From a virus, in the IMG/VR virus record IMGVR_UViG_3300005573_000064, positions 53,565 to 117,564 of that record: a DNA stretch of 64,000 bases. One strand, written 5' to 3'. How positions within the stretch are numbered: position 1 is the first letter of the stretch; the number at the start of each line of letters is the position of its first letter. The position numbers and the translations under genes were made by a program. The notes beneath the pieces were generated by a model. It was given only the letters and a program-made list of their open reading frames with translations, was not told where the DNA came from and did not search any database. This document shows positions 36,563 through 59,560 of the stretch, one piece after another.

Positions 36563-36571
36563 GCAATCCTC

Positions 36572-38161: not shown

Positions 38162-38163
38162 TC

Positions 38164-38433: not shown

Positions 38434-38469
38434 TATTTTCTCCTTGGAGAACTTGTTCTCTCCTCTGTA

Positions 38470-38781: not shown

Positions 38782-38806
38782 GTCCGTCTCCTCGAAGCAT
38801 AAATCT

Positions 38807-39226: not shown

Positions 39227-39238
39227 GTTGCGCTCCTA

Positions 39239-40009: not shown

Positions 40010-40078
40010 AAATTTTACGGCTCAAGCCCTCCGCTGTTTAAACAGCGCAAGGCGCATGCCGCCTCCTTTTCAACAATT

Positions 40079-40273
40079 CTATTTTCGAGGGAGCAGTTCC
40101 CCTAGCAGGGGATCCGCTATGATAACCGACTGGGTTTTAAGATTACCTAACACTTTGGAGGGGTCTGTTGCGGTTGGCGTCCAATTCTTTTTGAGCGAGG
40201 GGCTGTTATTTCTAGAGCCGGAAGGCGAGGGCTTTGAATTGGACGGCCGGCCTCCGCCAGGTTTTTTACTCAT
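40079..40273 (-). CDS. Small basic protein (64 aa)
   Basis: TGATG overlap with the upstream gene; AAGGAG RBS. Confidence 0.5.
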   Translation of the reverse strand: MSKKPGGGRPSNSKPSPSGSRNNSPSLKKNWTPTATDPSKVLGNLKTQSVIIADPLLGELLPRK

Positions 40274-41028
40274 CAGTCTGTCTCCTTGTCCGAAGAATCA
40301 TCCTTGGAGGATCCTCTTCCTCCGCGGAGCGATTCCATCTTCCTTTCCGAATTATATTGCGCAAGCACCTGAGTCATCACGTTCGTTATATCGCTTTCGC
40401 CCATGGACTTTCTCTCGGCCTCTTTTCTAGCCTGCCGTGACGCCAATAGAAGCTGATAGTGTTTGTTTATATCCTGTCTTAGCCTTCTCTGCTGTTCCAG
40501 GAGCTGGCTTGGTTGCCTGGAGTTATGTCTCAGTCCCGTCTTGGAGTCCGTACCTGCAACCATAACCTCCACCGGAGCCTCCTTGCGCTTAAGCTTGTCG
40601 CACTCCGTAAGTTGTATCTGCAGCCTTACAAGGTCGTTCACCATTTGAATGTCGGTGTAGTCCTCGGGCCTTATATCCAAATCATTGACATACCCGGCAA
40701 AATGTCTGAAGGCGTCCACTATCTCCAACGGGCATCCGTGCCCCACCCATCTTCCAACAGTGGAATTTTTAACCAAGGGGCACTCACCGCTGAAGTCGCA
40801 CTCCTCGCCTTTGCAAAGCAGGGGCACCGTGGTGTAAATCGTTAGCTGCTCCTCCACATTGGAAAGCTCCTCGGCACTCCAGTTAAGGACATAGTACCGC
40901 TTTCTTCTCATCTGAATGACTTCGGGCGGCCTGTAGTAATACTCTCCGGACTCGTCCTTCACATCGAAATTGGAGAAGTCTATTCTCAACGAGCCCATAA
41001 CAGTCTTTATATTTTTCTTTGACGCCAT
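40273..41028 (-). CDS. Putative terminase small subunit
   Basis: PLLCKGEEC..CPL..CPLE Cys cluster and helical C-terminus LLASRQARK; upstream of terL. Confidence 0.5.
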   Translation of the reverse strand: MASKKNIKTVMGSLRIDFSNFDVKDESGEYYYRPPEVIQMRRKRYYVLNWSAEELSNVEEQLTIYTTVPLLCKGEECDFSGECPLVKNSTVGRWVGHGCPLEIVDAFRHFAGYVNDLDIRPEDYTDIQMVNDLVRLQIQLTECDKLKRKEAPVEVMVAGTDSKTGLRHNSRQPSQLLEQQRRLRQDINKHYQLLLASRQARKEAERKSMGESDITNVMTQVLAQYNSERKMESLRGGRGSSKDDSSDKETD

Positions 41029-41052
41029 ATATTCCTCTTACAGGTAGCTCAC

Positions 41053-41185
41053 GTCCCTCGAGTTACAAGTAACCCGCGTCCCTCGAGTTGCAATCAACTC
41101 GCGTCCCTCGAATTACAAGTAATTCGAGTCTCCGTGAGTTATAACTAACTCACGGGTCCCTCGAGTTACAAGTAACTCGAGTCTC
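41053..41185. repeat. Five tandem ~25-bp units, each with the palindrome GAGTTAC-AA-GTAACTC
   Basis: gtccctcgagttacaagtaacccgc / gtccctcgagttgcaatcaactcgc / gtccctcgaattacaagtaattcga and two further units. Confidence 0.9.
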
Positions 41186-41322
41186 TGGTAAGTCGGTTCC
41201 TCCAAGGTACACTAATAAGTAGCGGACGAAAACAATTGTTTTCATTAAGATTGCGACTGGCCGCTAAAATGCGAAGACCGTAGTGTGAGGAAACTTAACG
41301 GAACAAGGAAGTCAGGTCCCGA

Positions 41323-41976
41323 TTACTTGCGTGATCTCACCGAACCGGATCTCCGTCTATTGAGAGAATTCAGATCGTAATCGAACTTTCTAAAGGTGAC
41401 CACGTATACTATGGTTCTTAAGGAAATATCGGACCCAAAACCTTTCCTGGAAGACTTAAAGCTATCACCGGAGGAGTGGGCCGAGCTATTGATAAGGTAT
41501 TTGAAGTAGTTGACCACCGCTCGCCCGCTATTGATATTCTCTATGGCGTTGTCATAATCCTCCTGGGATATGTTGGAGATGGCGCACTTCTTAATGCTTA
41601 TCACTTCAAGCAGCCCTTTTCTTCGGTTCTCGCTTTTCGTGCGCACGTCAATGATGTCTCCGAGAAGCAACGCATCCTGAAGGCCGCTGCTGGCCGCGTT
41701 TAGGGAGTAGCCGTTTCGGGAATCCGTAGGGTTGGACTCATGACCTCTCGGGACGGGAGAATTACTTTGTAAATCTCCCGGGGTCGGGGACTCGGCTTGC
41801 AAATCCCCCCGGTCAGGGCGGCTCGGATCCTCCGGGATGACGTAGCCTGCGGACTCCGTCCGTCCGCCATGCCGTCCGGCCCTGGCGGGATCACGCTCGG
41901 CCATTACGAATATGGATATGCGATCCATTTTTTCATATCGATCAAGCAGCGACTCGGGAATAACAAAAGTGCGCAT
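41323..41976 (-). CDS. Divergent ASCH/PUA-like protein with a low-complexity insertion
   Basis: GDIIDV..LEVISIKK..ISNISQEDY..VYVVTFRK. Confidence 0.45.
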   Translation of the reverse strand: MRTFVIPESLLDRYEKMDRISIFVMAERDPARAGRHGGRTESAGYVIPEDPSRPDRGDLQAESPTPGDLQSNSPVPRGHESNPTDSRNGYSLNAASSGLQDALLLGDIIDVRTKSENRRKGLLEVISIKKCAISNISQEDYDNAIENINSGRAVVNYFKYLINSSAHSSGDSFKSSRKGFGSDISLRTIVYVVTFRKFDYDLNSLNRRRSGSVRSRK

Positions 41977-42144
41977 GGCGTTTATCCTATCGAAATTTCA
42001 TTGACCGCAATCCGGGGTGGTAACCAAATCCCGTACGTCTTGGGACATAGGCCCCACTATGGCTTAGGGCCGGCCCACCTCCCCCGGTGTAATCCAAAAA
42101 TCATCCTATTCAAAGTGTCACACTCATATTATAGGCTATTTTCC

Positions 42145-42356
42145 TCAGGGCGTGAGATGACGCACACCCATGCAAATCACATCGTACGCCACCAATAACC
42201 CCATCACGATCAGATACCCCCGCAAAACATAAAGGGAGAACTTGACGCTCCTGCTCATTGGCATCGGACCAAGGGCGTCCGCGCTGACCTTCTCCTCCGG
42301 CTCATCAAACAGAGGATGCACTACGTAATAAACTTCGTCCCGTCTTGACTCCCCAT
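42145..42356 (-). pseudogene. Frameshifted small membrane-protein gene
   Basis: GGGAGG RBS and ATG lie out of frame (at ATGGGG) with the open frame YYVVHPLFDEPEEKV..FSLYVLRGYLIVMGLLVAY. Confidence 0.4.
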
Positions 42357-42536
42357 TGTCTTACCCTCCCTAGCCGGAACAACTCGGCCCCTTCGTAAAA
42401 GATTGTTTACACACCTGTTAGATTTATGCAAGCAGCTAATACGCCAATTCAAGTCCGCCATCGGACCGATCGATGCACCTAGCGAGGATTGTCGGAGGAG
42501 AGAGCGGGGTTGCGGTTCAGCCCCGCTCTCGGGGTG

Positions 42537-42720
42537 TGAGTTACAAGTAACCCACAGGATGGGGATATAAAGCGAAGTTACCGTGTCTCACTTTAATTAT
42601 AGCACATATAATCTCACCTCATGAGTCATAACTAACTCATGGAGGCGTGAGTTACAAGTAACTCACGGGTCCCTCGAATTACAAGTAATTCGCGTCCCTC
42701 GAGTTACAAGTAACTCGAGC
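42537..42720. repeat. Second cluster of GAGTTACAAGTAACTC palindromes (about five copies)
   Basis: One copy at ~42538 and a tandem run at 42616-42720; the last copy supplies the stop codon of 42704..43366. Confidence 0.88.
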
Positions 42721-43366
42721 CCCTGAATTTCCTCAAACGTCTTATCGGAACCACCAGGCATATGTCCCTCTCCAAAGGCTTTCCGGGCAAGCTCTCCTTA
42801 AGATTGAGATGCTTGTAGCTAACCCTCCCGACCTTCAGGAACTCCCCCACGCTCATCCACCCGAGAAGCGAAGCCTCTAGAATCCTGAACCTCACATTCG
42901 AACCCCTAAGTTGTTCCAAGCCGTAGGATTTATAAAGTAATTCTCCCATCTCAAGCCCATTACAAGATGACGAACAATCACCGGAGAGGTGGCCGGGCTT
43001 ATTCTCAATCTTCGGAGCCACGCCAATCCTGACCGCAACGACAACGGAGTTAAGTCCCGCCCTAAGCAGACACACCTTTGGTATCCACACACTGTCAAGC
43101 TGAGGCCCTATCGACTTGCAAACAACCCCTCTTCCATCCGGAAGAACCCCATCCACATTCGACCCATCCCCCTTTCCTCCGTAAGCGTTGAAGTCCATTG
43201 TCGCTCCCAGCATCAGTTCGACAAGAAGCTCCCCCACCGCTCCCATGAAATGCTTTTCCAAAGGCGTCCTTCCCCTGCATACCGTCTGGTTCGTCTTCGC
43301 CCCGTTCCTCTCCAAGGCTATGCGCAAAGCTCTTTCCTCTATTTGTTTTATTTTGTCAATTTCCAT
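42704..43366 (-). CDS. Hypothetical protein, PD-(D/E)xK nuclease-like
   Basis: GAVGELLV..GDG..VDG..VCKS pattern; TTGCTT-18-TATAAT upstream (43374-43403). Confidence 0.45.
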   Translation of the reverse strand: MEIDKIKQIEERALRIALERNGAKTNQTVCRGRTPLEKHFMGAVGELLVELMLGATMDFNAYGGKGDGSNVDGVLPDGRGVVCKSIGPQLDSVWIPKVCLLRAGLNSVVVAVRIGVAPKIENKPGHLSGDCSSSCNGLEMGELLYKSYGLEQLRGSNVRFRILEASLLGWMSVGEFLKVGRVSYKHLNLKESLPGKPLERDICLVVPIRRLRKFRGSSYL

Positions 43367-43468
43367 AATTCCAATTATACCTAGTTTTCCATGGAAAAAG
43401 CAACCCGTAAGTTAGTTATAACTTACGCCTCCGTGAGATTTACGCAAGTAATTCTCACGTCTTGACGC

Positions 43469-43630
43469 TTCAAATCTCAAGTTCAGTACTTCAAACCTGG
43501 AATTCAGCTTTTCAAATCCAGAATTCAGTACTTCAAAATCTCAAGTTCAGCCCTTTAAATCTGGAATTCAAATCCTGAAGTCAGTCCTTAAAATCTGGAA
43601 TTCAGTACTTTAAAGCCGGAATTCAGTACT
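43469..43630. repeat. Degenerate ~21-bp tandem repeat (about 7-8 units) at the strand-switch point
   Basis: Consensus approximately CTTCAAATCTGGAATTCAGTA. Confidence 0.85.
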
Positions 43631-43738
43631 AGGTGTACTGGTGGGGAATACGGGGGGATATTCCCGTTTTGCCCACGGTAACATCACGTGGCGACTTTGG
43701 GACAAGCCAACGCGCCCCCACGCCACAAGGAGACTCAA

Positions 43739-43948
43739 ATGAAACGCTTTCTCGTTGTTGTTGGTTTTGTTACCATCCTTGCGGTCCTCGTGACCGCAAC
43801 GCTGTTGTTTGTCGAGAGATTCACATCACACAAGCCCATGACCGCGTTGCGGTTATGGGTCAAAGACGTCCGCGCTATGGCGGACGCGGGCGTCACTGCA
43901 GCGAAAGCTGCAGCACCGAAAAAGGCCAAACCGACCGCGAAGAAGTAA
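43739..43948 (+). CDS. Small single-TM protein, family A copy 1 (69 aa)
   Basis: AAGGAG RBS before MKRFLVV; TM segment and basic tail. Confidence 0.85.
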   Translation: MKRFLVVVGFVTILAVLVTATLLFVERFTSHKPMTALRLWVKDVRAMADAGVTAAKAAAPKKAKPTAKK

Positions 43949-44050
43949 CTCGCGGTCGATGAGGATTGGGAGGGTCTAACGACCCTCCCTTTCCTCATGT
44001 GTGGCGATTGGACCAAAGGGCATAGCCCTCCACGCCACAAGGAGACTCAA

Positions 44051-44260
44051 ATGAAACGCTTTCTCGTTGTTGTTGGTTTTGTTACCATCCTTGCGGTCCT
44101 CGTGACCGCAACGCTGTTGTTTGTCGAGAGATTCACATCACACAAGCCCATGACCGCGTTGCGGTTATGGGTCAAAGACGTCCGCGCTATGGCGGACGCG
44201 GGCGTCACTGCAGCGAAAGCTGCAGCACCGAAAAAGGCCAAACCGACCGCGAAGAAGTAA
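44051..44260 (+). CDS. Family A copy 2, identical to copy 1
   Basis: Exact nucleotide duplicate offset by 312 bp. Confidence 0.85.
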   Translation: MKRFLVVVGFVTILAVLVTATLLFVERFTSHKPMTALRLWVKDVRAMADAGVTAAKAAAPKKAKPTAKK

Positions 44261-44374
44261 CTCGCGGTCGATGAGGATTGGGAGGGTCTAACGACCCTCC
44301 CTTTCCTCATGTAACGTGGCGAACTACTATGGGACAAGCCAACGCGCCCCCACGCCACGAGAAAGGACGTAAAG

Positions 44375-44935
44375 ATGTTGTTGATAGTCGTTGTTATTTC
44401 CCTCCTGGCCCTTTACGGGCTCGGAGTGGCCATCATCTCCGCTTCGAAAGAGGCGGAGAGCTTTATCTCCGCCTCATTGGCGGAGATCGCTAAAGCTTCT
44501 ATCTCCCAGGCTTCAACCTGGGAGGCGGATGGTAAGAACATCCGCTTTTCGTTTCTACGGGGAACCAACCTGCACTTTGGGGTGCAGGGCGATACCGCAT
44601 TTGTTCTGGTACCCGATGCGGGTACCGGTGAATTTATCACCGTCCGCCTCAACGCCCGGGCATACGCCCGGGCTAAGGCGGTCTGTTACGGTGAGCTCCC
44701 CCCAGCGGCTGAGCTGGAGGGAGAGACCTGGATACCGGACTCCAGAGGTATGAGGTTCTCCATGCAAATGGGAGAGAACCTCGTGCACTTTGGAGTGCAC
44801 GAGGGAGTCCCCTACCTCGTGGCGGGTGATCCCGCCACGGGGGTTGTAGTTCGTCTGACGGAGCGGGCTTATGCCCGCTTCGAGGGGGAATTCTTCCGCA
44901 TTCATGCGGGAGAAATTCCCAACCGCTGGAGATAA
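44375..44935 (+). CDS. TM-anchored protein with an internal domain duplication
   Basis: W..D...RFS....HFGV......D..TG..VRL..RAYAR occurs twice. Confidence 0.8.
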   Translation: MLLIVVVISLLALYGLGVAIISASKEAESFISASLAEIAKASISQASTWEADGKNIRFSFLRGTNLHFGVQGDTAFVLVPDAGTGEFITVRLNARAYARAKAVCYGELPPAAELEGETWIPDSRGMRFSMQMGENLVHFGVHEGVPYLVAGDPATGVVVRLTERAYARFEGEFFRIHAGEIPNRWR

Positions 44936-45018
44936 GCGGAAGGGGATTGAGGATTGGGAGGGTCTAACGACCCTCCCTTTTCTCATGTGACATCCTAAAC
45001 GGAAAGGAGGTGATTAGG

Positions 45019-45159
45019 ATGCTGTGGCTCATGATGTTGGGAATGGTGGTCCTCGCGGTGGAGTTAGCTGTCCACCGCGGGTGGATCGATTTCTCGGGCT
45101 ACCCGGCTGATCCGGATAAATACGTTCCGGACCAGCCTATCGACTGGCCCGAGGACTAA
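45019..45159 (+). CDS. 46-aa membrane peptide (below the ORF-track cutoff)
   Basis: AAAGGAGGTGA RBS; MLWLMMLGMVVLAVELAVHRGW...DWPED; flanked by the repeat element. Confidence 0.75.
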   Translation: MLWLMMLGMVVLAVELAVHRGWIDFSGYPADPDKYVPDQPIDWPED

Positions 45160-45233
45160 GAGGATTGGGAGGGTCTAACGACCCTCCCTTTCCTCGTGTG
45201 AGATTTTAAATTCATAAGAAAGGAGCGAGGAAG

Positions 45234-45527
45234 ATGAAGCTCTTCCACGGAACGAACCAGGTTCTATCGGAGCTGCTCCCTCCCTGTGACACGGGGAATC
45301 AGAGAGAGCTCCGCAGCCGTAACCTGGGAGTGGTCTTCGCCACTTCCGACTTTGGCGTGGCTCTGCGCTATGCGCAGGACGCTGCCAAGCGGTTGGGCGG
45401 CAGCCCGGTAGTTCTTGAGGTTACCGGTGACTTCCGGCCGTGGAAGAATAAGCCCGGATGCACTATCTTCATCGCTCCTTCCGCTCAGGTTGTCGGTATT
45501 AGAAAGGAGGTGAGGGGAAATGAATAG
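45234..45527 (+). CDS. Minimal ADP-ribosyltransferase (Arr-like fold)
   Basis: LFHGT, VFATSD, ALRYA, G.PVVLEV. Confidence 0.7.
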   Translation: MKLFHGTNQVLSELLPPCDTGNQRELRSRNLGVVFATSDFGVALRYAQDAAKRLGGSPVVLEVTGDFRPWKNKPGCTIFIAPSAQVVGIRKEVRGNE

Positions 45528-46077
45528 TATTAGTCTTGGACTAGTGGCGGAAGCCCTGGACTATGTGTCCTGGGAATCCGACCTGATCGCTAAGCTTCAA
45601 GACGAGCCCGTACTATCGTTCCCCTTCACCTCCTCTGTTGACTTAGGCCTTGGTCTGGCTTGGGAGTATTATGCCAAGGCTATGTCTCGAAGACGCGAGC
45701 CGCTTTCCGAGGAGCGGTTCGTGCGTCATTTCTCCCGCCAGGATGGCGTGGCCTACGGGGATATTTTCTCCGGTTGGCTGTTGGGGTCCCAAGTCGGAGA
45801 CCTATTCGCCATCTCGCACTTCGCCCCCGCTTCGATGCGGAGTGGTGTGAAGTTGCTTGAGGCCTTGGCGGGAGAATCCATCAAGTCCGTCATGATGGTG
45901 ACGGACGATCTGGTCGGTATGCTCGACCGTATCTCCGGCTGGCACCTGATTGCCTCCGGGATTCCTATGACCTTCCGTGATGAAGTGGTCATGAAGACAG
46001 TCTTTGTGAATGACTGTCTGTTCTCGGAAGGGCGTGCCGCATTGTTCCAGCGCATGGGGCAGTTGCTTGGACGATAG
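45520..46077 (+). CDS. Hypothetical protein (185 aa)
   Basis: AAGGAGGTG RBS; overlaps the ART gene. Confidence 0.75.
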   Translation: MNSISLGLVAEALDYVSWESDLIAKLQDEPVLSFPFTSSVDLGLGLAWEYYAKAMSRRREPLSEERFVRHFSRQDGVAYGDIFSGWLLGSQVGDLFAISHFAPASMRSGVKLLEALAGESIKSVMMVTDDLVGMLDRISGWHLIASGIPMTFRDEVVMKTVFVNDCLFSEGRAALFQRMGQLLGR

Positions 46078-46253
46078 CCCCTTATGTGTTGGAAGTATCA
46101 CCGGGAAGTGGCCGGGCATAGGGATTAGCCTGAGCCCTTGTTAGGCCGTTGTATCGGCCGGCTTCCTGGCTCGGGGTCTAACGACCCTCCCTTTTTTCAT
46201 GTGTGGCGTATGGGATAAAGGCCAACGTGCCTCCCTCGCCATAGGAGAATATT

Positions 46254-46667
46254 ATGGAAGTAGTTTACTATACGGCAGTTTTTATACTGTCGTATGCATT
46301 GATTCGCTGGGCGGTGGGCCTTCCCCGCCCGGCTGTCAAGCAGTTGGAGTTGAGGAGTCTGGTACTCCTCAGCTATGTCGTGTCTCAGGACATGTCTGAC
46401 TTTTATGAGAAATCGGACATGTCCTATCTGCAGAGCTTTTTAATCGATGTTTCCAGCGAAGTTGTGAGTAGCTGGAGACAGCTTAAGTCCAGAGATCCAG
46501 ATTCGTTATTTAGATCCCTGGATTCGAGCATAGCCCGCCTTAAGGACTATGCGTCTGTGGTTGCCGACATGGAGGGAGACGAGGCTTATGTAAGCCTCGT
46601 GGACTCCATGGGGCACAATTTGAAAGTGATGTTAGAGTATACCCTCGTTCAAGAGGGTATACTCTAG
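46254..46667 (+). CDS. TM-anchored helical protein
   Basis: AGGAG RBS after the leader hairpin. Confidence 0.75.
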   Translation: MEVVYYTAVFILSYALIRWAVGLPRPAVKQLELRSLVLLSYVVSQDMSDFYEKSDMSYLQSFLIDVSSEVVSSWRQLKSRDPDSLFRSLDSSIARLKDYASVVADMEGDEAYVSLVDSMGHNLKVMLEYTLVQEGIL

Positions 46668-46929
46668 TTTCTTATCACCGGAGGGTGGGCCGAGACACAC
46701 CTCTTCCGGCTCGATTACGTGACGCATTACTTAAGTAATGCATCGCGTATTCGGTGCCGGGCTCGGCCCAAGGGGTTCGTGATTATCCCCTCTGCCCGGC
46801 CCACTCCCCGGTGGTTTACTATTCACCTCTTGACGGGTGAATACGTTGAGGGTCTAACGACCCTCCCTTTTCTTATGTATGGCGAAACTGGACTAAAGGG
46901 CATAGCCCTCCACGCCATAGGAGGAAACC

Positions 46930-47133
46930 ATGAAACGGTTTCTGTTTCTTGTTGGGCTGCTTGCAACTCTTGCAGCCCTGGGGGTTGCGGTTCTGTTATT
47001 GATTGAGCGGGTTACCTCCCGCAAGCCACTCAAAGCCTCGATGCTCTGGGTGGCTGATCTCCGCGCGATGTACCGCGCGGGGGTTAGTGCAGCGAAAGCT
47101 GCACGCCCGAAGGAGACCACCACTAAGAAGTAA
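46930..47133 (+). CDS. Family A copy 3 (diverged)
   Basis: MKRFL..ER.TS.KP..LWV.D.RAM..AGV.AAKAA.PK. Confidence 0.85.
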   Translation: MKRFLFLVGLLATLAALGVAVLLLIERVTSRKPLKASMLWVADLRAMYRAGVSAAKAARPKETTTKK

Positions 47134-47232
47134 GTGGTGGTGATCGGATTGGGAGGGTCTAACGACCCTCCCTTTTTTCATGGATGGCGATAGGATTAAA
47201 GGGCATAGCCCTCCACGCCATGGGAGAATACG

Positions 47233-47835
47233 ATGATTATAAGAATCATCGTAAATGCCCGGATTCGCTCCGGGCGTTTTCTGGAGCACCTGATGAAGCA
47301 GGTGCTCCGCAGTGAGGACAGAGTCCTCACTTCTAACTCCCCGTTGGTCGGGGAGTTAGCGGCCAGGAATGGCTGGCCGTTTGTCCCCTTTGATAGAAAT
47401 GTGAAGTACGAGGGCGTACTTCACATCGCCCTTGAAGGCGATATGAAGGACTCCCAAATGAGGGAGTTCTTCTCGGCCCGCTTTGGGCCGAAATATGTGG
47501 AGCGGGTTGTTCCCGCTCCGATGAGCGTGGCCGCTGAAATGGCGGCCAATAAATTGTTCGCTCTCCCGGTTGTCCCCGGGAGGGTGAACTATGTTGACTT
47601 TGTTTCCAATGGACGGAAGTTCCGTCTGTTGGACCAGAACCCCAAGACGGGTTCCGTGTTTGCTAGAGCCCTGACAAAGGGCTGGCGAATCGCCTGGGTC
47701 ATTGACCCGGGCGTGAATGGTCCGGGCTACACCGGGGATGCTGTCTGGACTATCCCCGGTGATAGTCAAGTTTGTTTTGGCACCAAGGCCATGTTGAAGG
47801 CCTTGGTGACCGGTCAGGAGGTGATGCCCTTCTGA
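47233..47835 (+). CDS. Hypothetical protein (200 aa)
   Basis: GGAG RBS after the leader hairpin. Confidence 0.75.
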   Translation: MIIRIIVNARIRSGRFLEHLMKQVLRSEDRVLTSNSPLVGELAARNGWPFVPFDRNVKYEGVLHIALEGDMKDSQMREFFSARFGPKYVERVVPAPMSVAAEMAANKLFALPVVPGRVNYVDFVSNGRKFRLLDQNPKTGSVFARALTKGWRIAWVIDPGVNGPGYTGDAVWTIPGDSQVCFGTKAMLKALVTGQEVMPF

Positions 47836-48147
47836 CCGGAACGGGAGTCAGTTTCCCCGGTCGACTGACTCCCGGCTGTCATGACCGGGTTGACCGTTCC
47901 CCGGTCATTCTGATTGTGCCTTCGGCACTTTAGAATGGCCGGAGTGTGTCGGATCCACGAAGGAATTTGAACAAGGTTTTTAGGTTTTTCAATAAAAAAC
48001 CTTTAAAAACCTTTAAAAACTCCAAATCCCGATGGACTAGGGGGATTTGAAGCCCTGGTGGGTTTCAAATACTCTGGTCCCAGGGATCCGATTATGATAA
48101 AATTATTTTTATAGGGGCTTAAGGAAGCCCCGGAAAGGAAAAATGAA

Positions 48148-48693
48148 ATGCAAAAGTTCGAGCAATACTTTGATCTTCTCTTCCAAGCGGAAGAGCTGGT
48201 CTGGGGGATGGCAACCCCGGACCAAAAGTTGTTTGTCCACAAGTTTGCCCGTGCATACGGGCACTTGTGGGCTGTATCGATTTCTGAGGAAGAGGCTTTA
48301 AGCCTTTCCCTCAGTGAGATTAAATTGATCGCTGCCTCTCGGCAGCGACCGAACCTCCCAGCTGGGATAGAATATCCCAGCGTAGCCCAAGGGTGGTCCA
48401 TTGCGGGCCACGGGCTGGGATACATTCATACCACCCAAACGGGGCGAATTCACGTATTCGTCCCATTTGGGGCGGATACGGATTGGGTCTCCGTTGCGGT
48501 CGCAAGACCCGGGGGGGCCTATCTCGAGACGGCCCTCGACTATGAGGGCCACGTCTTGGCCTTTGATCTGCGGGGTGACCGCTGGTTCAAGCGCCATGAG
48601 CGCGCTTGGGCTAATGTAATCCGGGCATTGTTCCCGGACTTGAGGGGTGGGGAGTTTCCACAATTCCCCGTTGAAGTAGAGTTTGATGACTGA
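48148..48693 (+). CDS. Hypothetical protein (181 aa)
   Basis: Hairpin-GGAAAGGA leader. Confidence 0.75.
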   Translation: MQKFEQYFDLLFQAEELVWGMATPDQKLFVHKFARAYGHLWAVSISEEEALSLSLSEIKLIAASRQRPNLPAGIEYPSVAQGWSIAGHGLGYIHTTQTGRIHVFVPFGADTDWVSVAVARPGGAYLETALDYEGHVLAFDLRGDRWFKRHERAWANVIRALFPDLRGGEFPQFPVEVEFDD

Positions 48694-48702
48694 ACGGGGA
48701 AC

Positions 48703-48844
48703 TTCGGGGCGGAGAAATCCGCCCCGATTTTTTTATGTATGCCGGGGGTTTGGACCGGCATACACTTAGAAATGTCGTTCGGGGCGGAGAAATCCGTCCC
48801 GGTTTTTTTATGCGTGCCGGTCGTTAGGACCGGCATACACTTAA
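48703..48844 (+). repeat. Tandem ~75-bp duplication: terminator-like hairpin + T7 + ATG + second hairpin
   Basis: TTCGGGGCGGAGAAATCCGYCCCGR-TTTTTTT-ATGYRTGCCGG..CCGGCATACACTTA, twice. Confidence 0.85.
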
Positions 48845-48881
48845 AAAATTTCTTATTGGGGCTTGGAAAGCCCCGGAAAGG

Positions 48882-49607
48882 ATGAATGAAATGAGTACAA
48901 TAGAAATTGGGATTTTCGGCTATGACGAGGAGCAGTTCTCGATAACTGCTCAACCCGTCCGAGGTAAACCCTCAACCCGGGAAGACCGGGAGGAGGGTTG
49001 GGTCCTCAAAACCGAGGACGATCCCCGAGGTGGGACGTATTGTCTCACTTTGAAGGACTGTCTTCGGGTGGCCAAATCCTTGGACGGGGTTGTCATAGAC
49101 CCCGCAGCCGAGGAAAAGGCTGGTGCGGAATGGGAGGACTTGAAAAAGTCCTACCTGTTCCCCATAACCGGCTCTAAAGCCGGTGTTATTCGGGATGAGG
49201 AGAACAATCTCCTCATCATGAGATGGGGGTGGATGAAGGGAATACCCTTCGTGACGACCTCAGCGGAGATTTTTCCCTCCGATATAGGGAGGGAGGAAAT
49301 CCTGAGTTTCGAAGAAATTAATCCGGACGAGGTAGCCGCGAGGCTGCTCAATCCGGACCAATTTACCCCCATCAATTACTTCCACACCTACAAGGTGTGG
49401 ACAGCATGTACGGAGGTTGAGGTGACCGTTTGCACCGGTCCAACCTCCGTTTCCCCCTCGGAGAGCGCCTTGCAAGCGCTCAACGAGGCTTACGAGATTG
49501 AAGGAGAGGGCCATGGATACGCCCAGGCTCTCGAAGCCTTCCTGGACGCCAAGGAGGACGAAAGTCTTGCCTTGGTGGAGAAAGAAATCGAGGGGGAAGA
49601 GGGCTGA
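48882..49607 (+). CDS. Acidic hypothetical protein
   Basis: Hairpin-GGAAAGGA leader; very Glu-rich. Confidence 0.75.
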   Translation: MNEMSTIEIGIFGYDEEQFSITAQPVRGKPSTREDREEGWVLKTEDDPRGGTYCLTLKDCLRVAKSLDGVVIDPAAEEKAGAEWEDLKKSYLFPITGSKAGVIRDEENNLLIMRWGWMKGIPFVTTSAEIFPSDIGREEILSFEEINPDEVAARLLNPDQFTPINYFHTYKVWTACTEVEVTVCTGPTSVSPSESALQALNEAYEIEGEGHGYAQALEAFLDAKEDESLALVEKEIEGEEG

Positions 49608-49673
49608 AATGTCAGACCTCTGACCCCTCACTATGAAGGGAGGAGACAGGCTCCTCCCGGAAAGGTTAGTGAA

Positions 49674-49994
49674 ATGTATACATACTTGAGTAATGCGTTC
49701 TCCATCCAAATGCTGGATGGAGACGTCACTGTCTCCTTCGCACGAATTAGTGCGGAGGAGGCTCGAGAGATATTATCCTATGGCTTTACATCGGCCATAG
49801 GACACCCGGACACCGCGAATGTGGTGTCGGGGATCTTGAGGATACCGGTACCCGTTAACCGGATATCGGTGAAATTAGGCAATGACGATCGGTTAATCGT
49901 GGCTCAGTATGTTGGGCCACGATTGCCGGAGGGGGCGACAGAGCTCCCTTCGGGAGCGCGGATAGAATTCTACAAGGTCGTTCTGTCCAAGTGA
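49674..49994 (+). CDS. acrIII-1: DUF1874 / AcrIII-1 family viral ring nuclease (anti-type III CRISPR)
   Basis: YLSNAFSIQML, SAIGHPDTA (catalytic His), NRISVKL, PRLPEG. Confidence 0.88.
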   Translation: MYTYLSNAFSIQMLDGDVTVSFARISAEEAREILSYGFTSAIGHPDTANVVSGILRIPVPVNRISVKLGNDDRLIVAQYVGPRLPEGATELPSGARIEFYKVVLSK

Positions 49995-50135
49995 CGGGAC
50001 GGCCAAGATCAATTTACGAGAGGGACCGGTTGGAAAACCGGTTCCTTTCGTGTCCGAGAGTTACAAGTAACTCTCGTCTTTTCAATTCATACAATTCATA
50101 GGGGTTAAGGAGCCCCGGAAAGGACAGTTAGAAAA

Positions 50136-50879
50136 ATGTACGAGTTTATTAAGAAGTCCGAGCAGCCCGAGTGGTTGAGGGCGGCTCTAAAGGAAGTTGC
50201 TGGAAACTCGCTGGACGGCAGAGTTTACGTGATCAAGCCGTCCACTGGATCGAATGACCCCGATTATGGGGTCGACATTGATCCCGTTCTTCAGGGTGCG
50301 GTTACCCTGATGAACAAAGTTCGGGTTGAGTTTAGCGGGGAGTTCTTCCTCGCCACGCAACTCGAACGAGTAGGGCAGGCCGCAAGACCGGTCTGCCGGT
50401 GCATCGTACAAGCCAAAGAGGGTGCAGCTCGCTTCCCGGTCATCAATGGCCGGTTCGGGCTGTTCCCACAATCGTTGCTCATCCGTTCGAGCAACGTTAT
50501 AGCAATATTGGAAACTCCGGAGGCAAAGTTGAAGTCTCTGCTGTCCGGTGGCAAGTTAATTGACCCGAACGGGATTTATGCATCCCTTCGGGCGATTGAA
50601 GAGTGGAAGCAGTTCTACTCTTCATACGCAAGAAAGAATGGTCAGTATTGGAACTGGCTTGGCGTGTCTCTAACGCCATCCAGTAGGTCAGTACTGGCCC
50701 AAGCTTCCGCCCAAGTGGCGGATGTCGTGATTAAAATCGGAGGGGCTGAATACCCCTTCGTGCCTAGCATTAATACTCGGACGGTGGCACCGGAAACACC
50801 GGTGTTACCGTTCGAGGAAATACCGGAGCGCGCTTTCGAAGCTGACGCTCCGGAAGTGAAGCAGGGGGTATTGGGATAA
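50136..50879 (+). CDS. Hypothetical protein (247 aa) directly upstream of the RNAP genes
   Basis: Hairpin-GGAAAGGA leader; GAGTTACAAGTAACTC palindrome at 50055-50076. Confidence 0.75.
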   Translation: MYEFIKKSEQPEWLRAALKEVAGNSLDGRVYVIKPSTGSNDPDYGVDIDPVLQGAVTLMNKVRVEFSGEFFLATQLERVGQAARPVCRCIVQAKEGAARFPVINGRFGLFPQSLLIRSSNVIAILETPEAKLKSLLSGGKLIDPNGIYASLRAIEEWKQFYSSYARKNGQYWNWLGVSLTPSSRSVLAQASAQVADVVIKIGGAEYPFVPSINTRTVAPETPVLPFEEIPERAFEADAPEVKQGVLG

Positions 50880-50951
50880 TACCCCTTTTGGTAACTGGAA
50901 AGGATCAGTCCACGGAAGGATTGATCCTTTCCTTTTTCGAGAGATGGAGGT

Positions 50952-52544
50952 ATGATGATGCCTCAGGAGTTCTTTGTAAAAGAACCCTCCCTGTGCCCCA
51001 GGGAGGGTAACGTGTTCACCATTCGGATTGACAATCCGGAAAAGCTGGTGAACACGGTTCTTCACCAGATCGCAAGACCGGAAGAAATTCCGGTCTTTAA
51101 AATCGGGGGAGCTCGAGTGAAGCTTCCCCCGATCGAAGTTTTCGGCCTCATCCCGCAGGATTTGTGGGACGGGGAAGGGCATAAAGTCGGGACGGTTGTG
51201 GAACTGCCCGACAGCTTGCGGGCTCTCGACACCCTGCTTGGAAATGTTAAAGCAGGGCGGTTGAGCGAGGGGCAGAGAGATCGGGCTCTGTCCTTGGTAT
51301 TGGGCGGTATGAAAGCTCATGTGTATGAGCTTACCCATCCCCGCGTTAAAACCCCCGGGCTGATGGGCTTCGCCCTTGGGGCGGACAGTCAGCTCGGGGA
51401 GAAAGAAATAGCAATCAGCTCCCGCCAAGCGGGAAGACTGATTGCAAAGTTATTTCGCACCGGAGACAGGGGCGGCCTACTCGAGTATTTGCTTACTCGG
51501 GTTGAGCCGTTCCTGGCGCTGGCGGGGCGCGACCTGTCCTCCAGGCTTCGTTCCGGTGCGCGCCCGAGCGAGGAGGACAGGAAAGTAATCCGTCAAATAG
51601 CCCTCGGGCTCGATGGGGTGGCTGTCTTTGGCGTTCGATATCCGAATGCCAGCAGTACGTCCCACGAGCTGAAGACGCTCCGGATTTATAAAGGAGCGCC
51701 CGGGGACTATATTTATATCTCCCCAGTCGCCCTGGTGCGGAGGCATCAGGGCGATTGTGATGGGGACCGTCTGGGAATTCACTTCGTCCCCCGTGTGGTG
51801 GACGGGGTGACCAAGTCCCCGCATCCCCTCATTTGGAGACGCGAATATCAAAGCGCGCATTCCGCTTTCAATCTTGACGATTTAGTTGTCCCCGAGGGGA
51901 AATCCGACCTTGAAATCATGGCCGGGTTCTCCGAGCGGGGCCGGTGGGTCGGGATGCTCACCTATAATTTCTGGCTTCTCTTCCTAGCGCTTTCCAATCA
52001 TTGGAGGGAGCTAGGAATGGAGGCACCGGACAAGCTCTGTCCGGTTGTCCTTGACCTATTCACGCCTCTGGTCGAGGGCGTCATGAACGCCCGAAAGGGC
52101 CAAGGGGCCGGTACGATAGATGGCGAGAGCCTGGCCGCTCAGGTCTGCGAGATGTTCGCAGGCCAACGAGATATGGACAGGGTTCTCGCCCGTCTTCCCA
52201 TGAAGGAAGACGAAAGTGAATATGATGAGGAGAAGTTCTCCAAGTCTCAGTTAAGATTTCTGAGACGAGGGCTTCTCCTCGTCTCCGGGGGGAACCAACG
52301 GGTTCGGTTGAATGCGGCCAATGCCGCGTGTTCGGACCCGGTTCGCCTCGCATTCGCCCTCCGGTTCAAAGAGAGGGCGATGAAAATGCTAATAAACCAA
52401 ATCGGAGAGCGGAGCCTCTCCGAAACTATCCTAAATAGCTTGCTGGTCCAAGGCAAGCTTCCGTGGAAGGCCGGCAGGACGCTGACCTTCGCGGATGTCA
52501 ATGGAACCTCGGCTGATTTCATATCGGCCGAGGAGGAGTTTTAG
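50952..52544 (+). CDS. Two-barrel RNA polymerase, beta'-like catalytic subunit
   Basis: EIAIS, VFGVRYP (RxP), IYISP..RHQGDCDGDRL (DxDGD at 51753-51767), later VGMLTY and VMNARK. Confidence 0.8.
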   Translation: MMMPQEFFVKEPSLCPREGNVFTIRIDNPEKLVNTVLHQIARPEEIPVFKIGGARVKLPPIEVFGLIPQDLWDGEGHKVGTVVELPDSLRALDTLLGNVKAGRLSEGQRDRALSLVLGGMKAHVYELTHPRVKTPGLMGFALGADSQLGEKEIAISSRQAGRLIAKLFRTGDRGGLLEYLLTRVEPFLALAGRDLSSRLRSGARPSEEDRKVIRQIALGLDGVAVFGVRYPNASSTSHELKTLRIYKGAPGDYIYISPVALVRRHQGDCDGDRLGIHFVPRVVDGVTKSPHPLIWRREYQSAHSAFNLDDLVVPEGKSDLEIMAGFSERGRWVGMLTYNFWLLFLALSNHWRELGMEAPDKLCPVVLDLFTPLVEGVMNARKGQGAGTIDGESLAAQVCEMFAGQRDMDRVLARLPMKEDESEYDEEKFSKSQLRFLRRGLLLVSGGNQRVRLNAANAACSDPVRLAFALRFKERAMKMLINQIGERSLSETILNSLLVQGKLPWKAGRTLTFADVNGTSADFISAEEEF

Positions 52545-52546
52545 TC

Positions 52547-54454
52547 ATGAAGAACATGAAAATTCACTCATTTAAGGAAGCCCTCGGCTTCCTTGAAAAA
52601 GCGGGGATAAAGTTCACCCCGCTAACGGGTGTAAGAGGTGACATCGATACGGTCGATGTCATCTATCGAGGGGTTCGTTTTCCCCTCATAGTCCCGACTG
52701 TCACTCCTTTAGGAGACGACACGTTCGGGGAGATTGTTGAGGTCGGAGAGGCCCATGAAGGCCCCGATGGCCTCGTTAGAACGCGTAGGATATTTCATCC
52801 TACGCTAAATAACTCCGAAGTCAGGAAGCTTCGGAGATTTATGGCAGAGGAGGACGTAAAATCCGTCCTCGCTTCCGGAAGCTGGTTCGTTACAGGCTTC
52901 TGGAACGCATATGCGGAGGCGCTCGCGAAGGCGCACTTCTCCGCTGAAGCGATGCCGAGGCTTAGCTCCTCGTGGGCGGCTAGCCTCTTCAACAAGAATG
53001 TTCAGATTTTGCTGGCTTCTCTCGAGCTAGTAAAATCCGATGCCCACGCCCAGGCCCATGGACGGGTTTGGGTTCTCGCGTATCCCGGAAGGGATACAGC
53101 TCAGTCTCATGGAGGAGCGATAATCTCCGACCGCCTCAGCCCGGAGGTGGTCGAATATACTAGAAGGGCTTTCCACAAATTCGCAGCGGAACATCGTTGC
53201 GATATTATCACCACCGGGAAGGGCCACCCCGGTCGGAAGGTTGTATTCGCCCCGAAAGGGGTGAGCCCGAGCCTCTCAAGGCTCTGGGTCTGGCCGAATT
53301 TTGGCTGTCAAGCGCGGTCGCCACGTGAAATGTTCACTGGCGTCCCGAACGCCCAACAGTTTGTTAACGACCGAGGCGTTACGCCTCGGGTGACCTCCCT
53401 TGAGGGAGGGCCGGACTTCCTATCCGGTCGCATAAAATTCGTCAATGCTGCATTTCTAAGCTTTGACGAAGTAGTAACAAAAGATCCGGACGGGAAACCG
53501 TTGAATGTTGACCAGGTCCTTGGTACGGGCTGGTCCCACATCGATGGCATGTTCGATAGCCATCGAGACGAAACGCTCCTCGTCCCGTTCAAGGGCGAGA
53601 GCGTGGAGGATATTAAAGCCGCCTTCGGGACGGAATATGTCACGAAGGTATCCCGTCCCGTAGGGAACCTCCAGGAGGTTTCCTGGCAGATTATAAGAAG
53701 GGCAACAAATAGGTCCTCAAGAGGGTGGAAGGCCCTCAATCCGGACGCGGTAAAGGGGATGGTCATCCCTGAGCGCGCCCTATTACTAGAGAAGCGGGAT
53801 AATGAGGACTTCTTCCGTCCGATTTATCTAGTCTTCGCGAGCGAGGCGGTTGTGAAGAAGGAGGCGTCTCGCTCTGTATTGCGGATGCTGGCGTCCCGGC
53901 TTCCGCAACCCAAGCAGTTCGACCCTGCAACCCCAAGGGAGAAATTTGGGGAGGTTCTTGCGGGGATACGGGGGGAGCTGAAAGAGATAGGGGATAGCGG
54001 ATATTCCCGGATCTTCCGCCTTCTCCCGGTGCTCCACGATGAGCACGAGCTAATCAAATCCGCCCTTGAGGTGAAGGTCCTTGGCTTCACCGAGGGGGTG
54101 GATGAAGCAGGAGAGCCGATCATTCTCCCGATAGGGGAGAATGAAGTCGGCACGCTCCATGGCGGCCTCGTCCCCGTCATGGATGGAACGTCCGAAGCTA
54201 AGGCGGTGGTTGGCGAAATGCCAATCATGCGGATGCCGGAGGACGAACAGTTCGGAGAAGAACTCCGGCTGGATGTGTTACATAACGGGATCCGAATGGA
54301 CCCGTTTATGGTTCTGGGGAAGGACGAGCTCGAATTCCCCAAGGATGAAAAGATATCGGAGCTTCTGGACTTCGAAGCTCGTCTGGCTCGGGCGATCGAG
54401 CAGCAGCCGGTAATGGCCGCTCGTGAACTCGAAGCGGAGGACTGGCTTTCGTAG
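52547..54454 (+). CDS. Two-barrel RNA polymerase, beta-like subunit
   Basis: GWSHIDGM (cf. GYNFEDS), GWKALNPDAVKGMV (cf. GDKx7KGV), PIYLVFASEAV (cf. PVDIVLNP); starts 2 bp after the DxDGD gene. Confidence 0.65.
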   Translation: MKNMKIHSFKEALGFLEKAGIKFTPLTGVRGDIDTVDVIYRGVRFPLIVPTVTPLGDDTFGEIVEVGEAHEGPDGLVRTRRIFHPTLNNSEVRKLRRFMAEEDVKSVLASGSWFVTGFWNAYAEALAKAHFSAEAMPRLSSSWAASLFNKNVQILLASLELVKSDAHAQAHGRVWVLAYPGRDTAQSHGGAIISDRLSPEVVEYTRRAFHKFAAEHRCDIITTGKGHPGRKVVFAPKGVSPSLSRLWVWPNFGCQARSPREMFTGVPNAQQFVNDRGVTPRVTSLEGGPDFLSGRIKFVNAAFLSFDEVVTKDPDGKPLNVDQVLGTGWSHIDGMFDSHRDETLLVPFKGESVEDIKAAFGTEYVTKVSRPVGNLQEVSWQIIRRATNRSSRGWKALNPDAVKGMVIPERALLLEKRDNEDFFRPIYLVFASEAVVKKEASRSVLRMLASRLPQPKQFDPATPREKFGEVLAGIRGELKEIGDSGYSRIFRLLPVLHDEHELIKSALEVKVLGFTEGVDEAGEPIILPIGENEVGTLHGGLVPVMDGTSEAKAVVGEMPIMRMPEDEQFGEELRLDVLHNGIRMDPFMVLGKDELEFPKDEKISELLDFEARLARAIEQQPVMAARELEAEDWLS

Positions 54455-54554
54455 CCCAAAGCTCCACTTATGATGTTAAAATGTTTTCATAAATCGCCAC
54501 CGGAGAGTTGGCCAGGGGCTCGCATCTGCGAGACCACTCTTCCGGTTGGCGATG

Positions 54555-54603
54555 AAATGGCGATCCTGCGTCTCGTGAGGGATGCAGGGTCGCCATTTTT
54601 TTT
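54555..54603 (+). terminator. Strong intrinsic terminator
   Basis: AAATGGCGATCCTGCGTCTC-gtga-GGGATGCAGGGTCGCCATTT followed by a T-run. Confidence 0.85.
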
Positions 54604-59310: not shown

Positions 59311-59560
59311 CAAACTGCGTCCGAAGCAGGGGGATAGCGAAGTTAAACGCTACGCGATCTACGCTCAGCCTTCGGCTTCGCGTCAATCTCAGCCTTCGGC
59401 TTCGATTGATTAATAAATAATAAATTAAAATAAAATAAAAGGTTTAAGTACGTGGGCGTCACGTACTTAAAGAAACGGGGTTGGCACGGGACCCCGCTAG
59501 ACAGGGAGGCTTGAAACATAGCCTCCCTTTCGCATATGTGACATCATGAAAGGACAGAAA

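Follow-up and report, generated by a model that had tools for sequence, protein, structure and literature searches.

What does a repeated hairpin do at the head of one phage gene after another? The question is raised by the right-hand 64 kb of a 117,564-base viral record (IMG/VR record IMGVR_UViG_3300005573_000064, completeness rating 65%). This stretch of 64,000 nucleotides is called the window here, and positions refer to it unless the record is named. Between 43959 and 47182, its plus strand holds an array of gene cassettes headed by a hairpin element (HP1), which a first-pass annotation had read as a candidate template-strand hairpin promoter of the N4 kind. We confirmed the array, and a second phage was found to carry the same element. 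The answer that we favor, tentatively and with somewhat less than even confidence, is that the element is a composite stop/start punctuation module, which acts mainly through the plus strand transcript.

The sequence GGGTCTAACGACCCTCCC occurs in the window in seven copies without a mismatch, all on the plus strand. The chance expectation was 0.04 per shuffle, and none of 100 shuffles gave seven. Across the whole record, a search with up to two mismatches returned the same seven forward copies, nothing beyond them, and none in reverse. The alignment of the copies (A1) and an anchored table showed that the block GGGTCTAACGACCCTCCCTTT is invariant. It is followed by YYTY, resulting in exactly seven pyrimidines (Y7) in 7/7 copies, and then by ATG (six copies) or GTG (one copy), jointly RTG. 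These are the copy number, pyrimidine run, and trinucleotide that the first-pass annotation had described. The full 9-bp stem GGGAGGGTC/GACCCTCCC is present in 5/7 copies. The decay of the left arm reported for copies 5 and 6 is real: copy 5 has a stem of 6 bp on the plus strand, including one G-T pair, and of 5 bp on the minus strand, and copy 6 has a stem of 7 bp. The loop, right arm, and spacing are fixed throughout, as had been claimed. Copies 1 and 2 lie within an exact duplication of 283 bp at an offset of 312 (43718-44000 = 44030-44312), which ends just past RTG. The seven copies therefore count as six independent ones.

RNA folds showed further pairing below the 9-bp stem. In copies 1–4, a UU/UU internal loop is followed by a lower stem, in which the upstream GAGGA pairs with UCCUC or UUCUC of Y7. 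Five of the seven pyrimidines are paired, so Y7 is not a free tail in these copies. In copies 1–3, the lower stem extends 1–2 nt further, into RTG. The upstream stop codon is 11–24 nt away from the element in five copies, and 96 and 182 nt away in copies 5 and 6, respectively, where other structured elements are inserted between the upstream gene and HP1. The distance from the element to the downstream leader is constant in all copies; copies 5 and 6 go with the gene that follows them.

A second hairpin (HP2) was found in the leaders of copies 1, 2, 5, 6, and 7, starting 1–5 nt past RTG in the RNA folds. The outer stem reads (U)GUGGCG/CGCCAC(A) or (U)AUGGCG/CGCCAU(A), and HP2 is succeeded by an AGGAG-type ribosome site. 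The leader of copies 3 and 4 is of another type. HP2 was judged from single RNA folds; the MAFFT alignment misplaced the TGGCG arms. The start codon of the gene lies 34–66 nt downstream of RTG. RTG itself was rejected as the start codon, being in frame with the gene only in copy 1; copies 2–4 read ATG-TAA, ATG-TGA, and GTG-TGA. Other readings were dropped on anatomy. HP2 has neither a T-loop-like loop nor a CCA, as an RNase P-like substrate would. One short palindrome per gene, with genes as the spacers, does not resemble an integron attC or a CRISPR-like array, and HP1 is an inverted repeat and not the mirror repeat of H-DNA.

The second phage came from a family-alignment scan of viral contigs, which returned the IMG/VR contigs L009 and L010. 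They are identical over 21,461 bases and therefore count as one relative. Its polymerase subunits are 45% and 49% identical to the window proteins P0001 and P0002, which are described below. The synteny is kept, and the product of the gene upstream of the polymerase (247 amino acids, aa) is 37% identical. None of the seven cassette proteins had a tblastn match in the relative. Twenty elements stand upstream of its polymerase: 14 long copies of the form AGCCTGAGGAGGAGGGGC-TAAC-GCCCCTCCTTCTTGGGCT, five short copies of the form AGGGC-TAAC-GCCCT-TCCTTTTTAT, and one intermediate. In the long copies, the inner stem is followed by UCUUGGG, which is paired; in the short copies, UCCUUUUU follows the 5-bp stem. 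All 27 copies of the two phages align without a gap (A4), with the invariant columns GG.CTAA.G.CC.TC..T.T.....TG. CTAACG-N15-NTG was present in 27/27 copies with T and G invariant, the relative having CTG or TTG, and the loop with its closing pair was invariant in 26/27.

The GGG/CCC arms are maintained by compensatory changes between the two phages. Pairs were counted over 26 distinct rows and 18 pairs, with shuffled sequences and a slid partner as controls. Paired cells amounted to 82.5%, as compared with 73.7% after shuffling (reached by 0/500 shuffles) and 48.5–60.9% with the slid partner. Both sides changed in 7/18 pairs. Among the changes are T-A to G-C beside the loop (7 vs 19 rows), A-T in place of G-C at position 9, and, in the short type, A-U in place of G-C. 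HP1 of the relative extends to the T of CTG, and the stem of HP2 begins with the G, leaving 0–1 free nt between the two. HP2 covaries as well (GAGUGU/GCACUC vs GAGCAC/GUGCUU). The first rightward gene of the relative has an HP2-type leader without HP1, as in the window.

Beyond this pair, no close DNA relatives were found in the phage collection. The exact element had one match in IMG/VR, in a plain terminator setting on an unrelated 222-kb contig. Two degenerate patterns, applied to 2.9 million viral contigs, revealed no element arrays beyond this phage and the relative with its two contigs; elsewhere there were only single matches, several of which are not hairpins. The same pattern in 185,579 species genomes gave 30 single matches in unrelated taxa, which is about chance by our own estimate, with no array and no clue to a host or prophage. 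A scan of the viral contigs with the single polymerase protein yielded nothing, and three short metagenome contigs from the polymerase-family scan were without the element.

The layout of the module is not confined to this one sequence family. We scanned the genome for perfect hairpins ending directly before exactly seven pyrimidines and then RTG, and obtained eight matches on the plus strand, all within 43968-50025, and one on the minus strand. The scan recovered 5/7 copies of family 1; the stems of copies 5 and 6 do not end directly before Y7. The order of hairpin, Y7, RTG, and second hairpin recurs at 48704 and 48779 with GAAA loops (family 2, two tandem modules, the second of which uses G-T pairs) and at 50025 with a GGAA loop (family 3). 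Family 3 precedes the 247-aa gene and the polymerase genes. A diverged copy stands ahead of rnhA, where the first-pass annotation had placed a looser relative. It was found as described, reading GGGAGGC-10 nt-GCCTCCC-TTTCGCAT-ATG-TGACATC, with an 8-nt tail that is partly non-pyrimidine. The window holds ten modules of all families. No open reading frame (ORF) lies between the two family-2 modules. The 75-nt unit at 48735-48809 has a hairpin at its 5' end, no ORF, and the second family-2 hairpin with U7 at its end; if AUG is the start, this unit has the shape of a small-RNA gene.

The families allowed us to ask on which strand the hairpin acts. For the long copies of the relative, 247/252 cells pair on the plus strand (98.0%), compared with 211/252 on the minus strand (83.7%). 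The contiguous stem reaches 18 bp on the plus strand in 12/14 long copies and 9 (once 8) bp on the minus strand, the difference being due to G-T pairs. The outer stem is thus selected on the plus strand, with the transcript as its simplest carrier. The inner 9 bp are Watson–Crick on both strands in 5/7 window copies and in 13/14 long copies of the relative; being symmetric, they are not assignable to a strand. On the minus strand, the hairpin is followed by AATCCTC and not by a T tract. The plus strand loops of the three families are UAAC, GAAA, and GGAA. UMAC loops have been described to fold like GNRA loops (PMC12550061), and all three are GNRA-like RNA loops. These findings point to an element that works as a plus strand RNA hairpin, and not as an N4-style template-strand DNA hairpin. 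A promoter acting solely as double-stranded DNA is disfavored by the compensatory changes, and a template-strand hairpin by the plus strand wobble pairs.

The N4-style explanation given by the first-pass annotation fared poorly in this comparison. It holds that the 9-bp inverted repeat extrudes in supercoiled DNA, and that an injected polymerase binds the GTTA loop of the template strand and starts at RTG. The symmetric inner stem and the invariant loop and spacing are in line with it. The N4 promoters P1–P3 likewise combine a conserved hairpin and loop with a fixed start distance, and they head early genes (PMC4496689). However, the stem extension and copy 5 form their pairs only on the plus strand. 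The argument from stable d(cGNNAg) loops fails for the sister families, the template loops of which are TTTC and TTCC; a GNNA loop common to all three families is found on neither DNA strand. The same source gives N4 promoters a 3-nt loop, a 5–7 bp stem, a GC-rich heptamer centered at −11, and conservation from −17 to +1, whereas the loop here has 4 nt, the stem has 9 bp in most copies, and the center of the loop lies ~18 nt before the A of ATG. In N4, the hairpin is a template-strand DNA structure, gyrase and single-stranded DNA-binding protein are required, and the reader is a T7-like virion polymerase; nothing of this fits here. A search with PF00940 (T7-like polymerase) gave no match in the 65%-complete record; the control genomes were also without a match, so this is a weak negative. 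We regard the N4-style mechanism as very unlikely.

The polymerase that is present is of another type. P0001 and the adjacent P0002 are candidates for a split beta'/beta-like RNA polymerase of the phage. The P0001 family has only eight members in a collection of 5.8 billion proteins, with the invariant motifs RYPNASS.S and HQGD.DGDR..H. The AlphaFold model of P0001 (predicted local distance difference test, pLDDT, 67; predicted template modeling score, pTM, 0.40) matched beta' chains of RNA polymerases in Foldseek (E 6e-6, prob 1.0, TM ~0.19), so that the candidate named in the first-pass annotation is real at the level of the fold. This evidence covers P0001 only. No ORF of the record besides P0001 contains DxDGD. 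The P0001-family profile (A2) had no match at E ≤ 10 among the sequences of solved structures; the phiKZ subunits were not compared directly.

Sigma-70-like matches in the array block are only at or below chance. Between 42500 and 50500, we found two weak sigma-70-like sites, compared with 4.9 expected, and none inside an element; between 50000 and 64000, there were 15, compared with 9.9 expected. Rfam gave nothing near threshold over 42500-51000. Searches against Pfam (30 proteins) and PHROGs (10 proteins), sequence searches against the Protein Data Bank (the two polymerase proteins and the family profile), and an Atlas search (the 181-aa protein) returned no function bearing on the element. 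No nuclease, N-like, or RNA-binding protein was recognized in the Pfam and PHROGs searches.

HP1 shows some features of an intrinsic terminator in the window. The 9-bp GC stem has a calculated stability of −18.1 kcal/mol at 37 °C and −7.9 kcal/mol at 75 °C, and UUU(U) follows. The window tails range between UUUCCUC and UUUUUUC, with a perfect U7 in family 2. A consensus terminator scan made terminator-like calls for 4/7 copies, two of them at full stem length, and for both family-2 hairpins. The copies could be intrinsic terminators or attenuators, identical by recent duplication or recombination and setting up a read-through gradient along the array. The 283-bp duplication, in which a cassette was copied along with its element, fits this explanation, as do the intergenic stem-loops of T4-type phages, which are terminators and recombination points (PMC2839356). 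We nevertheless consider it improbable, though still a serious rival. Ten attenuators in series in the window, or twenty in the relative, would leave almost no distal expression, and a free U tract is missing from the main type of the relative. Copies 5 and 6, in turn, are distant from the upstream gene and stay with the downstream one, at the usual distance from its leader, while gene 46254-46667 ends in its own 16-bp hairpin. The loop, the inner arms, and the CTAACG-N15-NTG spacing were kept in all 27 copies of two phages with polymerases only ~45% identical and with unrelated cassette genes, which argues against recent copying alone. A plain terminator is therefore insufficient, and in this respect the first-pass annotation, which had considered the element to be more than that, was borne out. 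The sigma-70-like matches at or below chance in the block are also in line with that annotation.

An RNA end between the two hairpins, with the 3' end closed by HP1 and the 5' end folding into HP2, fits all copies. Such ends can be produced by termination and re-initiation or by cleavage. If RNA processing alone were at work, one long transcript would start in a promoter region before the first gene, and a nuclease would cut it near the HP1/HP2 junction, with no promoter in the element. Candidate enzymes are host RNase III, acting on a 16–18 bp stem, and a single-strand-specific or phage-encoded nuclease. We rate this explanation as a serious rival, less probable than the stop/start reading. 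Much agrees with it. The outer stem exists only in plus strand RNA, and the stems are about 16–18 bp long (9 bp, a 2×2 loop, and 5–7 bp in copies 1–4; 17 bp in family 3; 18 bp in the relative). HP1 and HP2 abut. The first gene does without HP1, and ahead of it both phages have the block CCCACGGTA, located just upstream of the first-gene leader and intergenic nowhere else. RNase III sites between the early genes of T7 are a precedent. Double-stranded RNA of ~20 bp, a feature of RNase III sites, is found in copies 1–4, in family 3, and in 14/20 copies of the relative, but not in copies 5–7 or in the six short copies of the relative (five and one variant), which are without a lower stem and keep the core. 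RNase III has little sequence specificity, which leaves the preservation of the loop and arms over ~45% protein identity unexplained, and no nuclease was recognized among the 30 proteins compared with Pfam and the 10 compared with PHROGs.

The stop/start reading that we favor assigns a role to both hairpins. HP1, with its GC-rich stem, cUAACg loop, and, often, purine/pyrimidine lower stem, would form in the RNA of the upstream cassette and make its 3' end, both by stopping or attenuating transcription and by protecting that end. The following RNA would start at or next to the invariant TG, eight nt beyond the 9-bp stem. It would fold immediately into HP2, a 5'-terminal hairpin just ahead of the ribosome site, and the result would be one message per cassette with a hairpin at each end. 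The restart would most likely occur at a start-site-type promoter for the split beta'/beta-like polymerase of the phage. The repeat, its structure and strand, and its conservation and spacing in a second phage are established, whereas the termination, the start at TG, and the identity of the acting polymerase are inferred. Transcription starts have a preference for a pyrimidine at −1 and a purine at +1. Here, T(−1)/G(+1) is the sole post-stem feature that is invariant in both phages.

The closest precedent is phiKZ. Its 61 mapped termination sites share the motif BCCYCCCCHWWDGGGRRGGBYTTATKYYGT (PMC10914365), and its non-virion RNA polymerase (nvRNAP) starts at the G of TATG, which the beta-like subunit reads on the non-template strand (PMC12809450). 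In our own scan of the phiKZ genome, the terminator motif had 45 + 35 matches, compared with 1 + 0 for the reversed control; within 10 nt of the hairpin, TATG was present in 38/73 cases, TATT in 17, and TATA in 15. In the pre-early region of Thermus phage P23-45, seven termination sites share a unique 26-nt motif, which has been read as a sign of unusual termination (Chaban et al. 2024, PMC10770324). We favor termination with a start-site promoter because no other promoter is visible in the block, because the conserved terminators of phiKZ are often followed by TATG, a sequence at which its nvRNAP can start, because P23-45 offers a conserved termination motif, and because of the invariant TG.

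Several observations weigh against this reading. The long copies of the relative, with UCUUGGG paired and CTG in place of RTG, have no free U tract, so neither classical intrinsic termination nor RTG is conserved as such. There is no single ruler: the constant spacing is N15 from the loop in the short copies of the relative and 7 nt from the stem end in families 2 and 3. Part of RTG is paired inside the HP1 stem in family 3 and in copies 1–3. In both phages, HP2 but not HP1 precedes the first gene of the array. Since the polymerase is encoded downstream of the array, it could be the first enzyme to read the array only if it were packaged, and no sign of packaging was found. The variants are distinguished by substitutions alone, and common descent without selection could thus account for the N15 spacing. 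Finally, the loop may be merely a favorable tetraloop, since an unrelated viral contig (L036) also has cUAACg hairpins with T tracts.

The absence of HP1 from the first gene would be explained by a stop–start mechanism on DNA, which we consider quite improbable. A single entry promoter would lie at the CCCACGGTA block, and the minimal two-barrel polymerase of the phage would release the RNA at each HP1, stay on the DNA, and re-initiate at TG, much as at the gene junctions of negative-strand RNA viruses with a non-segmented genome. This would give graded monocistronic messages, hairpin-capped at both ends. The mechanism would also explain the fused stop and start at fixed spacing and the lack of promoters over 10–20 units.

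The conserved loop also allows for a boxB-kind RNA hairpin, in which a phage protein would bind the UAAC loop and control read-through, stability, or translation, switching the array as a block. Nut sites are few per genome. The boxB hairpin has a short stem, occurs once per operon, and works with boxA and host Nus factors. Here, in contrast, each gene has a hairpin of its own, and the GC stems are long. The invariance of the loop and closing pair agrees with protein recognition, and the one conserved upstream block could be the sole promoter. Phage boxB RNAs include UMAC loops, and the phi21 boxB is a phage RNA hairpin with a protein-read UAAC loop of GNRA-like fold, the N peptide binding the CUAACC loop (PMC12550061). 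No N-like or other RNA-binding protein was recognized in the protein searches described above, and the first gene product resembles a small membrane protein. Of all the explanations considered, we give this one the lowest probability.

The comparison with known systems further defines the element. Like phiKZ, this phage has its own beta/beta'-like polymerase. Both genomes have dozens of near-identical GC-rich hairpins with CCCTCCC/GGGAGGG heptamers and loops of 4–5 nt, followed by a short T-rich stretch and ATG, and the motif is taken as RNA-level in both. The arm order differs, the purine arm coming first here and the pyrimidine arm in phiKZ. RTG follows after 7 nt here, whereas the G of TATG is 4–5 nt past the stem in phiKZ. 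The UAAC loop, the restriction to one cassette array, and the second hairpin also set the present element apart from that of phiKZ.

In T4-type phages, promoter early stem-loops (PeSLs) are intergenic cassettes of a terminator stem-loop and a sigma-70 promoter, which flank small ORFs (Arbiol et al. 2010, PMC2839356). The likeness extends to the order of the parts, with a stable stem-loop in the gap between small ORFs and then a ribosome site and start codon, an order found here too. PeSLs flank small non-essential ORFs in variable regions, where recombination shuffles and duplicates genes; here, the 283-bp duplication ends in the element and the cassette genes differ between phages. PeSL promoters have the sigma-70 consensus and use the host polymerase, whereas no −35/−10 pair was found in or after the present element. 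Also, PeSL stem-loops vary in sequence and position, but the loop, arms, and spacing are fixed here. P23-45 has two-barrel polymerases and clustered promoter motifs (14 AT-rich and 7 GC-rich), besides the shared 26-nt motif mentioned above. Its enzymes are single-chain proteins, one of them fused to the tape measure; the giant proteins here are without DxDGD. The RNase III sites of T7 and SP82 are alike in shape and not near-identical in sequence. They resemble HP1 in lying between cistrons as hairpins that span about two turns of helix, in some cases with an internal loop, and in leaving the upstream message with a 3' hairpin (the SP82 early mRNA processing sites are cited within PMC4838370). 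HP1, in contrast, is near-identical in sequence, and a third of the copies have no lower stem. The architecture is PeSL-like without the sigma-70 promoter, and the sequence logic is closest to the phiKZ terminators with the arms reversed. The module is a cassette signal of a kind known from other phages, tied to a rare minimal polymerase family.

We know of no promoter or terminator for the P0001 polymerase family. The modules are short candidates for both signals, available in 10 copies here and 20 in the relative, with natural variants in which loop, stem length, strand, and spacing are already separated. If TG is the primary start, the promoter logic of the phiKZ nvRNAP start site would extend to a far smaller enzyme, and fused terminator/start signals would be a recurring feature of phages equipped with a multisubunit-type polymerase of their own. 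Should the ends arise by cleavage, the phage would have a sequence-specific processing system. In either case, the module marks sites of accessory-gene swapping in this clade. The coordinates of the modules, leaders, and associated genes are collected in the table.

Table. Hairpin modules, leaders, and associated genes in window coordinates.
Feature	Position	Strand	Description
Leader of first plus strand gene (43739-43948)	43672..43738	+	HP2-type hairpin, without HP1
Block CCCACGGTA	43672-43680	+	ahead of first plus strand gene; same placement in relative
HP1 copy 1	43959..43999	+	lower stem AUGAGGA/UCCUCAU, UU/UU internal loop, 9-bp stem GGGAGGGUC/GACCCUCCC, UAAC loop
HP1 copy 1, tail	within 43959..43999	+	Y7 TTTCCTC; ATG at 43997
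HP2 leader, copy 1	44000..44050	+	UGUGGCG...CGCCACA with inner stems, AGGAG ribosome site; start codon 44051
HP1 copy 2	44271..44311	+	in second unit of exact 283-bp duplication (first unit holds copy 1); leader differs (GUGGCG...CGCCAC); gene 44375-44935
HP1 copy 3	44948..44987	+	Y7 TTTTCTC, ATG 44985; leader not HP2-type (ATGTGACATCC...); gene 45019-45159
HP1 copy 4	45160..45198	+	abuts stop codon TAA (45157-45159); GTG at 45196
Copy 4 cassette	45234-45527, 45520-46077	+	two genes under one element
HP1 copy 5	46173..46201	+	GGGGUC/GACCCU, 6 bp with one G-U; ATG 46199; HP2, gene 46254-46667
HP1 copy 6	46848..46877	+	7-bp stem, behind inserted structured element; ATG 46875
Copy 6, downstream gene	46930-47133	+	preceded by HP2 UAUGGCG...CGCCAUA
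HP1 copy 7	47151..47182	+	Y7 TTTTTTC, ATG 47180; HP2, gene 47233-47835; last copy of array
Sister family 2, two tandem modules	48704..48812	+	UCGGGGCGGA-GAAA-UCCGYCCCGR, U7, AUG
Sister family 2, second hairpin	within 48704..48812	+	(U/C)(A/G)UGCCGG...CCGGCAUA
Sister family 3	50015..50076	+	17-bp hairpin, GGAA loop, takes in UCCUUUC and GUG; second hairpin CGAGAGUUAC..GUAACUCUCG
247-aa gene	50136-50879	+	upstream of polymerase genes; in relative
Candidate phage RNA polymerase	50955..54454	+	P0001 (beta'-like, HQGDCDGDR) and adjacent P0002; both in relative
P0001	50955-52544	+	HQGDCDGDR
Diverged copy before rnhA	59504..59545	+	GGGAGGC-10 nt loop-GCCUCCC, UUUCGCAU, AUG, UGACAUC (leader like copy 3)

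A rough ORF map of the record places nearly all genes up to record position ~96.9 kb on the minus strand, including ORFs of 4662, 2629, 1990, and 1918 aa, and all genes from window position 43739 onward on the plus strand. With this switch at 43739, the array starts at a divergent intergenic region rich in direct repeats. Within it, the stretch 43470-43640 is packed with iteron-like direct repeats (AATCTGGAATTCAGTACTTCAA and variants). The product of the first plus strand gene has the appearance of a small membrane protein. On the minus strand, the 4662-aa ORF (L026, record 42090-56078) has an HExxH peptidase match near residue 2285, and the 2629-aa ORF (L027, record 34201-42090) has VanY at its C terminus. 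DxDGD was found in 0/6 ORFs longer than 1000 aa. On the plus strand, a perfect TTGACA-18-TATAAT stands at 60365-60394 ahead of gene 60427-61020, which is conserved in the relative and located there on the other side of the array.

The leftward genes have a signal of their own. The octamer CTATAATA, in many cases with G or GG in front of it, was counted 12 times on the minus strand and once on the plus strand across the whole record. It lies mostly just upstream of leftward (structural) genes, e.g., at 8319, 9688, 20393, 32966, 38475, 39254, and 42134, and may be a −10-only promoter motif of late genes. At two places or more, it is found 8–14 nt beyond a terminator-like hairpin. One of these hairpins, GCCTCCC-TTCG-GGGAGGC-TTTAT at ~20400-20435 on the minus strand, is exactly of the phiKZ terminator type and precedes CTATAATA by 14 nt, before a leftward gene.

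Two further contigs deserve a description. A short metagenome contig with a polymerase homologue (L011:1-330) opens with three to four copies of a 37-nt repeat (GTTTCAATCC...GGTGCAAC) and spacers, resembling a small CRISPR array. The unrelated AT-rich viral contig L036, at 33% GC, contains four cUAACg-loop hairpins with T tracts at 3490-4800; three of the four run directly into a repeated TTTTTACTATT, and two share the left flank AGGTCGGAG. Here, too, a hairpin and a motif are combined in a compact design.

Three other repeated features were observed in the intergenic regions of the window. Palindromic boxes of the form (R)TTAC-N4-6-GTAA(Y), such as GAGTTACAAGTAACTC, are grouped in regulatory intergenic regions (42640-42720, 43405-43460, 46725-46745, 50055-50076, ~54690-54760, and ~58700-58800) and have the appearance of operator sites for a dimeric DNA-binding protein; the second hairpin of sister family 3 is one such box. 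The motif CACCGGRGRGTGGCCGGGC opens larger structured inserts at ~46100, 46677, 54510, 57985, and 58660 on the plus strand, and also at 42985. Two of these inserts stand between cassette genes and HP1 copies 5 and 6, and the inserts could be mobile or RNA elements. A third leader type was found at 48100-48147, 48850-48890, 49625-49673, 50090-50135, and 55570-55601. It is AT-rich, ending in ATAG, ATTG, or ATGAAG, and continues with a hairpin GGGGCUU..AAGCCCC (or a variant), GGAAAGGA, and the start codon.

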